Assembly (NCBI RefSeq): GCF_053078305.1
Contig: NZ_CP166879.1
DNA: 64,000 bases
Direction: 5' to 3' (one strand)
Under the pieces are notes generated by a model that was not told the origin of the DNA, searched no databases, and was given only the letters and a program-made list of their open reading frames with translations. A program made the position numbers and the translations under genes. This document shows, one piece after another, positions 4,317 to 8,082 of the stretch (position 1 is its first letter; each line of letters begins with the position of its first letter).

Positions 4317-5600
4317 TTAGTCTTTAGCTGTTGCATTTTGCTTATGAAACAGTTCACGGAACACCGGATAAATATCATCCTGGTCGCGGATATGCTGCAT
4401 CGCAAAGTTGTCGAAAGTAGATTGCAGATGCTCATATTCTCGCCACAGTGTCTGATGCGCGCGACGGGTAATTTCGATATAGCTGTAATAACGAACAACG
4501 GGTAATAATTTTTTCGCCAGAATTTCATGGCAAAGCGGAGAGTCATCGGCCCAGTTATCGCCGTCCGATGCTTGTGCAGCGTAAATATTCCACTGTGCCG
4601 GGTTATAACGCTCTTTCACTACCTCATCCATCAGTTTCAGGGCGCTGGAAACAATGGTGCCGCCAGTTTCCTGCGAGTAGAAAAACTCATGTTCATCGAC
4701 TTCTTTCGCCTGGGTATGATGGCGGATGTATACGACTTCCACGTTCTTATACGTTCTGCTGAGGAACAGATACAGCAGAATATAAAAACGCTTAGCCATA
4801 TCTTTAGTGGATTGATCCATTGAACCGGAAACGTCCATCAGGCAAAACATCACTGCCTGGCTGGAGGGATCGGGCCGCTTCTCGTAGTTCTTGTAACGTA
4901 AATCGAAGGTGTCAATAAAAGGGACGCGTTCAATTTTGGCACGTAATTCTGCAATTTCTTTGCGCAGACGTTCCTCTTCCAGCAGCTGCGCAGGTTCACT
5001 GTTGCTGATGATGGCCAAATTCTCTTCCAGTGCATGAAGTTCCCGCCGCTTGCCTGCCGTCATGGCTGTGCGTCGCGCCAGTGAGTTCTGCAAGGAACGC
5101 ACAACGCTGATATTGGCCGGAACGCCGTTAGCGGTATAACCCGCCCGATGCGTTTTATATTCGGTCAGCTGGCGTTGTTGGTTTTGTTTCAGATTCGGTA
5201 AGGCCAAATCTTCAAAGAGCAGATCAAGATACTCATCTTTCGAAATCTGAAAGACAAATTCATCCTGACCTTCACCATCCTGGCTGGCCTGGCCCTGACC
5301 ACTGCCGGAACCTCCGCCGCCACCCTGGGGACGTTCAATTCGGTCGTTCTGGACGAAATGGTCATTGCCCGGATGTACGCGGTGGCGCAGGCCGCCACGC
5401 CCCTGATGAAACATCGGTTCGCTAATATCTTCCGTGGGAATGGATACGGATTCGCCGCTGTCGACGTCAGTCACCGAACGCTTATTAATGGCCTCGGAGA
5501 TCGACTGTTTAATTTGCGCTTTATAACGGCGTAAAAAACGCTGGCGATTCACCATGCTTTTGTTTTTGCCGTTCAGACGCCGGTCAATAAACCAGGTCAT
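4317..5600 (-). CDS. yeaH: UPF0229/DUF444 protein YeaH (427 aa), partner of the YeaG kinase
   Basis: 427-aa ORF with a Gly-rich stretch ([12 protein letters not shown]), recognised as YeaH. Confidence 0.9.
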
Positions 5601-5712
5601 ATGCCCCCCGTACTACATTTGCCAACTGTATGCTACGCCTGTGTTGCCATTTCTCTGGCCCACGGTTCGCTGTCGTTGTAGGCCCGGTAGCATGTGTACC
5701 GGGCCAGGGTTG

Positions 5713-7647
5713 TTAAGACGATTTACGTACGCGCAAATACCATTCGCACAGTAAACGCACCTGTTTACGGGTGTAGCCTTTTTCCATCATACGGTCGACA
5801 AAGTCGTCGTGTTTCTTCTGCTCGTCGGTTGACGTTTTGGCGTTAAACGAGATAACCGGCAACAGCTCCTCGGTATTGGAGAACATTTTCTTCTCGATAA
5901 CCGTGCGCAGTTTTTCATAGCTGGTCCAGTTCGGATTGCGTCCGCTGTTATTGGCTCTGGCGCGCAGTACGAAGTTAACAATCTCGTTGCGGAAATCTTT
6001 TGGATTACTGATCCCCGCCGGTTTCTCGATTTTCTCCAGCTCGGCGTTAAGAGACTCGCGGTCAAACAGCTGCCCGGTATCCGGATCGCGATACTCCTGA
6101 TCCTGAATCCAGAAATCCGCGTAGGTAACATAACGGTCGAAAATGTTTTGCCCATATTCGGAATAGGATTCAAGGTAGGCCGTCTGGATCTCTTTGCCAA
6201 TAAACTCGGCATATTTCGGGATCAGATAACCTTTCAGGAACTCCAGATAGCGTTCTGCCTGCTCTTGTGGGAACTGCTCGCGCTCGATCTGCTGTTCCAG
6301 GACGTAGAACAGATGGACCGGGTTTGCCGCCACTTCTACATGATCGAAGTTGAACACGCGGGAGAGGATCTTAAACGCAAAACGCGTCGACAGACCGTTC
6401 ATCCCTTCATCGACACCGGCGTAGTCACGATATTCCTGATACGACTTGGCTTTGGGATCGGTGTCTTTCAGACTTTCGCCATCATAAACCCGCATCTTTG
6501 AATAAATGCTGGAGTTTTCTGGCTCTTTCAGGCGCGAAAGAATGGAAAAACGTGACAGTGTTTCGAGCGTGCCAGGGGCGCATGGGGCGTGAGTCAATTC
6601 ACTGTGATTAAGCAATTTCTCGTAGATTTTTATCTCTTCGGAAATGCGCAAGCAATACGGCACCTTCACGATGTAAACACGATCGAGGAAGGCTTCGTTG
6701 TTTTTGTTATTACGGAAAGTGACCCATTCGGACTCGTTCGAGTGGGCAAGAATAATCCCGTTGAACGGCAGGGCGGAGATACCTTCCGTCCCGTTGTAGT
6801 TACCTTCCTGAGTGGCGGTTAACAGCGGATGCAGCACTTTAATCGGTGCTTTAAACATCTCAACGAATTCCATGATCCCCTGGTTGGCGCGGCACAGTGC
6901 GCCGGAATAGCCATAGGCGTCTGGGTCATTCTGCGCGTAGTGTTCGAGTTTACGAATATCGACTTTCCCTACCAGCGCGGAGATGTCCTGGTTGTTCTCA
7001 TCACCGGGCTCTGTTTTGGCGATAGCAATTTGTTGCAGAATGGACGGCCAGACCTTCACTACCCGGAACTTAGTAATATCGCCACCAAATTCATGCAGAC
7101 GTTTTGCCGCCCACGGCGACATGATGGTGCCGAGATAGCGGCGAGGAATGCCATACTCTTTTTCCAGAATCTGCGCATCTTCCTGCGGATTGAAAAGACA
7201 GAACGGATGATCGTTGACCGGGCTACGCTCACCGTTGGCGCTCAATACATAAATCGGTACGAGCTGCATTAATGATTTCAGTCGCTCAGCAAGCGATGAT
7301 TTACCCCCACCCACAGGCCCCAGCAGATACAGGATTTGTTTCTTCTCTTCCAGCCCCTGAGCCGCGTGTTTCAGATAAGAGACAATCTGTTCAATCGCGT
7401 CTTCCATGCCGTAAAACTCTTCAAATGCCGGATAACGTGCAATGACCCGGTTAGAAAAGAGTCGAGAAAGTCTGGGTTCCTGGGCTGTATCGACCATGAC
7501 AGGCTCACCGATAGCCATCAATAGCCGCTCAGCCGCGTTGGCATAAGCACTGCGATCTTGCCGACAAGTGGTAAGAAACTCCTGCAGTGTGAACTCTTCG
7601 TCCTTGGCAGCTTCATATCGCTGGCGATAGTGATCGAATATATTCAT
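5713..7647 (-). CDS. yeaG: PrkA-family serine protein kinase YeaG (644 aa)
   Basis: 644-aa ORF with a Walker-A-like GPVGGGKSS motif; recognised as YeaG. Confidence 0.95.
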   Translation of the reverse strand: MNIFDHYRQRYEAAKDEEFTLQEFLTTCRQDRSAYANAAERLLMAIGEPVMVDTAQEPRLSRLFSNRVIARYPAFEEFYGMEDAIEQIVSYLKHAAQGLEEKKQILYLLGPVGGGKSSLAERLKSLMQLVPIYVLSANGERSPVNDHPFCLFNPQEDAQILEKEYGIPRRYLGTIMSPWAAKRLHEFGGDITKFRVVKVWPSILQQIAIAKTEPGDENNQDISALVGKVDIRKLEHYAQNDPDAYGYSGALCRANQGIMEFVEMFKAPIKVLHPLLTATQEGNYNGTEGISALPFNGIILAHSNESEWVTFRNNKNNEAFLDRVYIVKVPYCLRISEEIKIYEKLLNHSELTHAPCAPGTLETLSRFSILSRLKEPENSSIYSKMRVYDGESLKDTDPKAKSYQEYRDYAGVDEGMNGLSTRFAFKILSRVFNFDHVEVAANPVHLFYVLEQQIEREQFPQEQAERYLEFLKGYLIPKYAEFIGKEIQTAYLESYSEYGQNIFDRYVTYADFWIQDQEYRDPDTGQLFDRESLNAELEKIEKPAGISNPKDFRNEIVNFVLRARANNSGRNPNWTSYEKLRTVIEKKMFSNTEELLPVISFNAKTSTDEQKKHDDFVDRMMEKGYTRKQVRLLCEWYLRVRKSS

Positions 7648-8082
7648 GGTATGCCGTCCTTTCGTTTTTTAGCACAGGTTAAGAGCCGTTCATATGAATA
7701 GTAGAGGCTCCCGGAAGAGGTAAACTGAACGACGTCTCTTGCTAAAACACAGCAACTCTCATGCCATTTTATCGACGATGAGAACAACGTGCCCGGTGAT
7801 ACACCTTCAAAATTAAGCGTAGATGGCAAATGGAAAACTTGCCTGCACGGCTTTCTTAATTTCAATGGCATATCAACAACTCATCCATAAATTTTGCATA
7901 ATTAATGTAAAGACCAGGGTCGCCAGTAACGTTAAATTCATTTGGCTGTAAGCGCGGTGTCATCCGCGTCAGGAAAATTAAACAGTTACTTTAAAAAATG
8001 AAAACGTAAAAAGGTTGGGTTTCGATGTATTGACGGGTAAACTTTGTCGCCCGCTAAACATTTGTTTAAGGAATGATTAATT

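Follow-up and report, generated by a model that had tools for sequence, protein, structure and literature searches.

The locus and its intercistronic hairpin

Why does the spacer between two co-transcribed genes of Escherichia coli contain a perfect, GC-rich stem-loop, and does this structure influence the RNA in which it lies? The question is raised by the yeaG-yeaH locus on contig NZ_CP166879.1, of which a stretch of 64,000 nucleotides, referred to below as the window, was analyzed. The host is E. coli: positions 4200–7900 are 100% identical to the corresponding region of E. coli strain A30 and are found in 5424 of the 5426 complete genomes of the species, and RefSeq names the two genes yeaG and yeaH. 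A preliminary description based on the letters of the window had reported the gene pair and a spacer of 112 nt at 5601–5712; both are present, but the genes are located on the minus strand. The first gene, yeaG (5713–7647, minus strand), is an open reading frame coding for a PrkA-family protein of 644 aa in which an N-terminal AAA+ domain is followed by a PrkA domain at the C-terminus, and yeaH (4317–5600, minus strand) codes for a DUF444 protein (YeaH/YhbH family) of 427 aa, whose N-terminal half is predicted to be disordered and whose C-terminal domain appears similar to the von Willebrand factor A (vWA) fold. While these genes and their regulation are already known and well studied, the new element is a stem between them that is derived from a repetitive extragenic palindrome (REP) and marks an RNA 3' end. 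In our best explanation, to which as a whole we assign a probability of roughly 60%, the hairpin is the surviving arm of an old bacterial interspersed mosaic element (BIME) that was acquired in this spacer by an ancestor of the Enterobacteriaceae, and it acts as a barrier to 3'-to-5' exonucleases, defining or stabilizing a yeaG-only RNA.

The stem had been described as a perfect palindrome of 8 bp. GCCCGGTA-N7-TACCGGGC is indeed found at 5682–5704, but an additional G-C pair extends the true stem to 9 bp (GGCCCGGTA/TACCGGGCC), with a 7-nt loop, at 5681–5705; seven of the nine pairs are G-C. The complete element, including its REP head, spans 5678–5705 (minus strand). It reads GGCCCGGUA-CACAUGC-UACCGGGCC in the mRNA, followed by UAC, and the stem begins 7 nt past the UAA stop codon of yeaG. 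A folding free energy of –16.8 kcal/mol was calculated for the isolated hairpin. Stems of this quality are rare: when the spacer was shuffled, a perfect stem of at least 9 bp arose in 31 of 20,000 sequences and one of at least 8 bp in 132 of 20,000, and the entire window contains only nine distinct perfect hairpins of this kind. The spacer as a whole is not unusually well folded (z = –1.18), and a larger structured RNA is unsupported. An Rfam scan of positions 4000–8300 at E ≤ 10 returned nothing beyond a chance-level match to RydC, which was rejected (19.7 bits as compared to a gathering score of 48; E = 3.3; wrong strand). Within the species the stem is essentially invariant, as a 40-mer of the window that comprises the hairpin occurs at one place per genome, with 95–100% identity, in 5424 E. 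coli genomes; the hairpin of strain K-12 differs from that of the window by one base in the loop.

Origin and conservation of the hairpin

On the plus strand the element reads GTAG-GCCCGGTAGCATGTGTACCGGGCC, which may also be written GTAG-GCCCGGTAGCATGTGTACCGGGC; its GTAG(G) head, GTAGGCCCGG at 5678–5687 (plus strand), is the sole copy in the window. Since a GTAG head joined to a GC-rich palindrome is the signature of REPs, the hairpin is read as a diverged REP, accompanied by a decayed partner REP, rather than as the bespoke element envisaged in the preliminary description. A REP class of the type GTAGGCCcGgTAAGCG..GCGCCaCCgGGC has been listed for Citrobacter koseri and Klebsiella pneumoniae by Nunvar et al. 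(2010; PMC2817692, Table 1). The REP of C. koseri is GTAGGCCcGgTAAGCGaaGCGCCaCCgGGC, the class in K. pneumoniae is nearly identical, and both species combine it with a second class, GTAGGCCggatAAgGCG..CGCCatccGGC, to form BIMEs (PMC2817692). The GTAGGCCCGGTA head, the GCCCGG/CCGGGC outer stem and the ACCGGGC tail of this Citrobacter/Klebsiella class are identical in the hairpin of the window, whereas the interior of the E. coli element is replaced and 4 nt shorter, and the element is present in a single copy per genome. In C. youngae, P. vulneris (Pseudescherichia), RIT691 and Enterobacter, the orthologous hairpin matches the class over its full length. With respect to the properties expected of a REP or BIME, the element is an extragenic GC-rich palindrome (25–28 nt within the 112-nt spacer, as compared to about 20–40 nt for the imperfect palindromes of REPs), but in E. 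coli it does not occur in many copies, being found at exactly one place per genome in all 5424 genomes; for the class consensus, the median is about five places per E. coli genome. Judging from these comparisons, the hairpin is best called a relic REP of a low-copy class, and not an active repeat.

A second, decayed REP in inverse orientation was recognized in the spacer alignment at 5646–5664 (minus strand; CGUGGGCCAGAGAAAUGGC). Its aligned counterpart, GTAGGCCGGATAAGCG..GCATCCGGC, is intact in the spacers of E. coli SCPM, C. youngae, P. vulneris, P. gergoviae and RIT691. In six relatives, an intact inverted partner REP follows about 17 nt beyond the first one, which is the layout of a BIME; in C. 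youngae, P. vulneris and RIT691, the first REP is of full length, and an inverted GTAGGCCGGATAAG.. REP that comes after it is intact. In the window, in K-12 and in E. albertii, the partner is disrupted by substitutions and a gap of 11 alignment columns, with a spacer length of 112 nt in the window as compared to 122 nt in E. coli SCPM, and in Enterobacter it is gone.

Conservation was assessed with a comparison set of 80 yeaG loci from other gamma-proteobacterial species, a set without Salmonella and Klebsiella; the Enterobacteriaceae subset comprised 12 sequences, i.e., the window and eleven others whose spacers align with it. The hairpin is kept in all 12, with free energies of –16.8 to –23.1 kcal/mol, 7–11 nt past the stop codon. 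Covariation was counted on an alignment of the hairpins only; the MAFFT alignment of the entire spacers misaligned the hairpins, and a weak alternative pairing between the tail of the first and the head of the second REP, suggested by RNAalifold on that alignment, resulted from the misalignment and was not used. In the hairpin-only alignment, pairing is kept in 97.9% of the stem cells, and one pair is U-A in some sequences and C-G in others.

The RefSeq copy of K-12 carries no repeat features in the 50 kb inspected, even at the canonical REP after gdhA, and is therefore uninformative as to whether the hairpin is an annotated REP; yeaG does not appear in the RepRanger supplement lists. The canonical Y-type REP GTAGGCCTGATAAGCGTAGCGCCATCAGGC at 30649–30678 of the window (plus strand) is the counterpart of the one that follows gdhA in K-12.

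An RNA 3' end past the stem

Published Term-seq data place an RNA 3' end just past the hairpin. When the K-12 coordinates are carried over by alignment of K-12 with the window, the ends at K-12 1868880 and 1868879 fall at 5675–5676 (minus strand), 5–6 nt past the stem. The "primary" 3' end of yeaG is listed at 1868879 in LB at an optical density (OD) of 2.0 (1211 reads) and at 1868880 in M63 (762 reads) (PMC7815308, supplementary files 1 and 3). For LB at OD 0.4, a condition of poor operon expression, no yeaG end is listed (PMC7815308). The earlier suggestion that the hairpin might serve as an mRNA processing or stability element fits this 3' end. By itself, however, an end past the stem in vivo is equally expected for an exonuclease barrier and for an intrinsic terminator. 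The stem is followed by UACAACGA, without a U-tract (or a T-run in the DNA), hence it is not a classical intrinsic terminator. Consistently, a terminator scan made no call at the spacer hairpin, though the same scan reported a terminator-like hairpin directly past the yeaH stop codon (4284–4312, minus strand; an 11-pair stem followed by the T-run TTTTAGCTCA, found by a consensus search), which is predicted to mark the end of the operon.

A second line of evidence is the abundance of the two transcript parts. In RNA-seq data of nitrogen-starved E. coli, the baseMean values were 5327.6 for yeaG (1935 nt) and 1791.6 for yeaH (1284 nt) (PMC10954441, supplementary file 7), from which we calculated an approximately 2-fold ratio of reads per nt. 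Given a 3' end just past a stable stem that lacks a U-tract, combined with an excess of upstream RNA, a REP-type exonuclease barrier is the most likely explanation. In this model, yeaGH is transcribed as a bicistronic RNA from sigma54/NtrC- and RpoS-dependent promoters. After cleavage or termination at a point farther downstream, the RNA would be trimmed back to about 5–6 nt past the stem, leaving a stable yeaG-only species, such that yeaG RNA exceeds yeaH RNA. Translation of yeaH would be controlled separately, by pairing of the Hfq-dependent small RNA SdsR with a 15-nt block just upstream of the yeaH ribosome-binding site.

A close precedent is the intercistronic REP stabilizer of the malE-malF operon (Newbury et al. 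1987); the malE-malF REPs reportedly block 3'-to-5' exonucleases, and RNA of the upstream cistron reportedly outlasts that of the downstream one. Both systems share a spacer with REP hairpin(s) that lack a U-tract and an excess of upstream cistron RNA, which in the case of yeaG is about 2-fold, with a 3' end past the stem. They differ in that the window contains one short, diverged REP and a decayed partner, as compared to canonical multi-copy REPs in malE-malF.

Alternative explanations

Several other readings deserve consideration, and they are not mutually exclusive. The hairpin might be a neutral relic of a selfish repeat, the 3' end being an incidental by-product of a stable stem during RNA decay. 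The REP origin, the decay or loss of the partner REP and the weak covariation are all compatible with neutrality, and so are the short spacers without a hairpin in many species and the repeats inserted into the spacer in other genera. Spacers of Citrobacter sp. FP75 (4935–5138 of its retrieved locus) and Serratia grimesii, which are 202 nt and 179 nt long, respectively, contain the element GTGAATCCCAGGAGCGTACATAAGTACGTGACTGGGGTGAGCG, which, judging from the enterobacterial repetitive intergenic consensus (ERIC), we take to be ERIC/IRU-like; a second repeat family has thus hit the same spacer. The 229-nt spacer of Vibrio sp. UCD-FRSSP16_30 consists in part of about seven copies of the 9-nt tandem repeat TTTTAGTAA. 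Against neutrality, however, 12 of 12 Enterobacteriaceae have preserved the first REP in the form of a stable hairpin, whereas the adjoining second REP decayed or was deleted, the stem is essentially invariant in the 5424 E. coli genomes, and stems that do not resemble terminators recur independently in the spacers of other lineages. Spacers of less than 45 nt, which lack a strong stem, account for 28 of the 79 examined in gamma-proteobacteria, but 39 of the 51 spacers of at least 45 nt hold a stem of at least 8 bp with at least five G-C pairs. The stems of different lineages are unrelated in sequence and are almost never followed by a T-run. They may reflect repeated selection for an internal stem, or merely a spacer that is tolerant of palindromic insertions. 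Taken together, we regard a purely neutral relic as doubtful.

The hairpin might instead bring about a partial stop of transcription, either as a non-canonical intrinsic terminator or as a pause hairpin for Rho, in which case transcription itself would give rise to both the 3' end and the lower level of yeaH RNA, without trimming or stabilization. Such a stop would account for a 3' end located 5–6 nt past a GC-rich stem and for a read density that is about 2-fold lower on yeaH. It is nevertheless unlikely in view of the missing U-tract after the stem (UACAACGA) and the silence of the terminator scan; moreover, yeaH is co-regulated with yeaG, and both are needed together. The site is also not among the Rho termination regions of PMC7815308, although these were determined under conditions where yeaG is poorly expressed.

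A further possibility is that the element mainly lowers YeaG synthesis, the stop-proximal REP hindering the terminating ribosome and provoking trans-translation. As summarized in PMC12306157, Liang, Rudd and Deutscher (2015) derived the rule that REPs affect translation only if fewer than 16 nt separate the REP and the stop codon. With its stem 7 nt past the UAA, and 7–11 nt past the stop codon in all Enterobacteriaceae orthologs, the yeaG element lies within the distance stated in that summary, but it is shorter than the canonical REPs of the work of Liang et al., and ribosome stalling and tmRNA tagging of YeaG would have to be assumed by analogy. The excess of yeaG RNA over yeaH RNA speaks against a strong destabilization of yeaG RNA, and we consider this explanation improbable. 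BIMEs bind proteins such as gyrase and integration host factor (IHF), but a hypothetical function of the palindrome as such a DNA site, which the BIME ancestry might suggest, is very improbable, the partner REP and the linker having decayed in E. coli.

Several observations also weigh against the exonuclease-barrier model itself. The hairpin, its REP ancestry and conservation, the 3' end in vivo and the SdsR chimeras described below are documented by published data; that both the 3' end and the approximately 2-fold RNA difference are due to the hairpin, and that it affects RNA stability and matters for the YeaG:YeaH ratio, is what we infer from them. Because the six outer pairs never vary, the covariation support is modest, and the observed score was reached in 24 of 500 shuffles. 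A REP origin alone suffices to keep a palindrome, hence a conserved hairpin need not indicate a selected function in yeaGH; and with a single copy in E. coli, the assignment to the REPs draws on partial similarity and orthology. The 28 species (of 79) whose spacers, of 16–44 nt, lack a hairpin evidently manage without one. The Term-seq counts are low, about 1,000 as compared to 10^4–10^5 for strong ends (PMC7815308), and the list of Rho regions was obtained in LB at OD 0.5, where yeaG is barely expressed, so that absence from it is weak evidence (PMC7815308). Finally, the 2-fold gap in read density derives from one data set, in which wild type and sdsR mutant were pooled, and could be due to faster decay of yeaH RNA for other reasons, e.g., SdsR.

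Validated and predicted SdsR sites and promoter of yeaGH

Among the non-coding parts of the spacer, AAGTTGGCAAATGCAGTACGGGGGGCAT just before the yeaH ATG is better conserved than any other, the hairpin included. The Shine-Dalgarno sequence of yeaH, GGGGGG at 5604–5609 (minus strand), is conserved in the spacer alignment, as is a 15-nt block, AGUUGGCAAAUGUAG, at 5613–5627 (minus strand; –27 to –13 of yeaH), which is complementary to nt 17–33 of SdsR. The predicted duplex consists of 8 bp, a 2-nt bulge and 7 bp, i.e., 15 bp in total; all Enterobacteriaceae examined retain it, whereas in Erwinia, Pantoea and Dickeya it fades. (A full-length RNAduplex calculation of SdsR with the spacer gave an unrealistic 96-nt duplex, and only the local core was retained.) The block is thus a predicted SdsR site upstream of the yeaH ribosome-binding site, and published chimeras obtained by RNA interaction by ligation and sequencing (RIL-seq) support it: sdsR:::yeaG.yeaH.IGT chimeras were recovered in three replicates each under N- and N-24 conditions, and YeaH protein was increased (log2 1.06) in an sdsR deletion mutant (PMC10954441, supplements). 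In that study, the yeaH site appears as a supplementary prediction only (PMC10954441). Interpretation of the TTGGCA within the block as a –35 or sigma54 element was rejected on the basis of spacing; SdsR complementarity explains the block.

Another SdsR pairing site, located in the 5' untranslated region (5'UTR) of yeaG, maps to 7669–7678 of the window (minus strand; CCUGUGCUAA, –31 to –22) when its published position is transferred. This site was validated with a green fluorescent protein (GFP) reporter and a compensatory mutation, and sdsR:::yeaG.5UTR chimeras are listed as well (PMC10954441). Like known targets of SdsR (RyeB), the yeaH site is complementary to the 5' region of SdsR, lies beside a ribosome-binding site, and is accompanied by chimeras and a rise in protein; in contrast to the yeaG 5'UTR site, to which the compensatory mutation is confined, it is a predicted one. 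The two sites on the yeaGH mRNA would use adjacent, non-overlapping parts of SdsR, approximately nt 35–45 for yeaG and nt 17–33 for yeaH. As one SdsR is in principle unable to occupy both sites alike, two molecules may be needed.

Induction of yeaGH in stationary phase and upon nitrogen starvation, as mentioned in the preliminary description, is documented in PMC4664914 and PMC10954441: NtrC and RpoS activate the operon, SdsR represses it, and the cells need it to survive long nitrogen starvation. RpoN/NtrC- and RpoS-dependent promoters have been reported (PMC10954441). A sigma54-type –24/–12 element upstream of yeaG, TGGCATGAGAGTTGCT at 7751–7766 (minus strand), which matches TGGCAY-N5-TTGCW, would fit the RpoN/NtrC promoter. 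It is the only match in the 64 kb, where 0.23 are expected by chance, and at least one match occurred in 19 of 100 shuffles. The range initially proposed for the locus covers the two genes but ends at 7760 and thereby splits this element. Sigma70 promoter scans gave chance-level counts, and no yeaH promoter was found in the spacer.

YeaG, YeaH and their relationship

The proposed homology of the pair to PrkA and YhbH of Bacillus is borne out by protein family searches. YeaG matches the Pfam families AAA_PrkA (PF08298, E = 1.3e-187) and PrkA (PF06798, E = 8.7e-71), and scores 1342 bits with the PrkA-family equivalog NF011999 of NCBIfam (cut-off, 576). A homolog of known structure is PDB entry 9xip ("Serine protein kinase", E = 7.5e-51), whereas similarity to Lon is weak and confined to the P-loop. 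The entries 9xip, 9xiq and 9xir contain 30 chains of this 692-aa YeaG homolog, which suggests a large homo-oligomer; a paper describing them was not found in the literature searched. YeaG is 82–100% identical across the 80 gamma-proteobacterial species. When E. coli is compared with Vibrio, Shewanella, Pseudoalteromonas and Alteromonas, the amino acid identity of YeaG is 82–89%, with lengths differing by no more than about five residues, while that of YeaH is about 60–77%; by this measure, YeaG is unusually conserved for a stress protein.

The designation of YeaG as a Ser kinase is contested in the literature. In its favor, in vitro phosphorylation has been cited for YeaG, and a mutant in the putative kinase site of E. 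coli YeaG (K426A), like an AAA+ mutant, fails to complement. In contrast, PrkA of B. subtilis has been reported to act as an ATP-dependent protease and described as "not autophosphorylated nor a kinase" (PMC9512850).

YeaH is a full-length member of DUF444 (PF04285, E = 4.2e-191) and scores 843 bits with NF003708 of NCBIfam. It also matches TIGR02877, "sporulation protein YhbH" (E = 1.5e-70), but below the equivalog cut-off, and therefore is a homolog of YhbH rather than its equivalog. The Gly/Ser stretch remarked upon earlier does exist, at 5289–5324 (minus strand; 12 residues, YeaH 93–104), as seen from the translation and alignment. However, this low-complexity segment is Gly-rich in nearly all of 31 orthologs, and with a per-residue confidence score (pLDDT) of about 30 it is predicted to be disordered; it is a conserved feature of the family and no peculiarity of the strain. 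An AlphaFold (AF2) model of YeaH, built from the 31 orthologs, is poor as a whole (mean pLDDT 64), but residues 239–418 were modeled with confidence (pLDDT 75–93). A Foldseek search with this domain returned 88 PDB matches at E ≤ 0.001; among the best 50 of the 88, many are vWA or integrin I-domains, with target TM-scores of about 0.6 for single-domain targets. The sequence DVSGS (YeaH residues 256–260; 4821–4835, minus strand), identified in the alignment of the orthologs as a DxSxS motif of the metal ion-dependent adhesion site (MIDAS) type, as well as T312/T315 and D346/D348, is invariant in all 31. The C-terminus of YeaH thus models as a vWA fold, in which the DxSxS..T..D residues would form a MIDAS motif. 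YeaH had been described as like nothing known; a PDB sequence search with YeaH gave nothing meaningful, and no relevant paper connecting DUF444 with von Willebrand emerged from a search of the literature.

Pairs of an AAA+ ATPase with a vWA/MIDAS partner are known, such as RavA-ViaA, CbbQ-CbbO and NorQ-NorD, whose ATPases are of the MoxR type. According to the model, the YeaG-YeaH layout looks like such a pair, rather than like a simple kinase with a protein of obscure nature. The likeness lies in an AAA+ gene adjoining the gene of a protein whose C-terminus has a vWA fold with DxSxS..T..D residues, whereas YeaG falls outside the MoxR family by sequence, forms part of a separate Pfam family and contains, at its C-terminus, a large PrkA domain. 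A physical or functional coupling of the two proteins, albeit hypothetical, would be in line with the location of yeaH directly downstream of yeaG in 80 of 80 gamma-proteobacterial loci and with shared mutant phenotypes and cofitness in the literature; cofitness of yeaG, yeaH and ycgB (SpoVR) has been reported in six bacteria.

In view of this distribution, the occurrence of a PrkA/DUF444 pair in a non-sporulating genome, which had been singled out, is unremarkable, since the pair is well studied. The prkA-yhbH genes of B. subtilis (with spoVR) represent the same Pfam families, are likewise adjacent, and share SpoVR/YcgB as a cofit third partner. The E. coli system differs in that the organism does not sporulate, that regulation is by NtrC/sigma54, RpoS and SdsR, and that ycgB is located elsewhere in the genome; besides, the protease activity reported for B. 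subtilis PrkA contrasts with the failure of the putative kinase-site mutant of E. coli YeaG to complement.

The neighboring cdgI gene

Downstream of yeaH, the start codon of cdgI (yeaI; 4168–4170, minus strand) is ATT in the window strain, as compared to ATG in K-12; the protein reads GKIILSTR where K-12 has GKMIQSTR, and an upstream in-frame stop codon of K-12 is a Gln codon here. RefSeq annotates a 1476-nt coding sequence of cdgI from position 4168–4170 in the identical strain A30, despite the ATT. An in-frame start of the canonical type is first encountered at 4038 (ATG) and would yield a protein of 447 instead of 491 aa; in this lineage, the protein may thus be poorly translated or shortened at its N-terminus.

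Implications

In nitrogen-starved E. coli, yeaGH has been termed a "metabolic brake", with the setting of its protein levels regarded as an open question (PMC10954441). A more speculative extension of our model, which we put forward tentatively, is that the spacer forms a composite post-transcriptional ratio controller. A domesticated REP hairpin would shield yeaG RNA, and perhaps also slow the release of ribosomes at the stop codon, while the SdsR/Hfq site would silence yeaH and perhaps trigger its cleavage; together they would allow starving cells to shift the stoichiometry of an AAA+ motor (YeaG) and a vWA/MIDAS adaptor (YeaH). If this were true, the unrelated non-terminator stems that recur in other lineages would represent repeated selection for an uncoupling of yeaG and yeaH.

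The analysis refines the picture of a studied operon by adding a REP relic that coincides with a mapped 3' end of the RNA, a further SdsR site, predicted at yeaH, and a vWA/MIDAS domain modeled for YeaH. Current knowledge is not overturned; yeaGH would rather be one more case of REP-based discoordinate expression, and the AAA+/vWA reading may help in the debate on whether PrkA/YeaG proteins are kinases or proteases.

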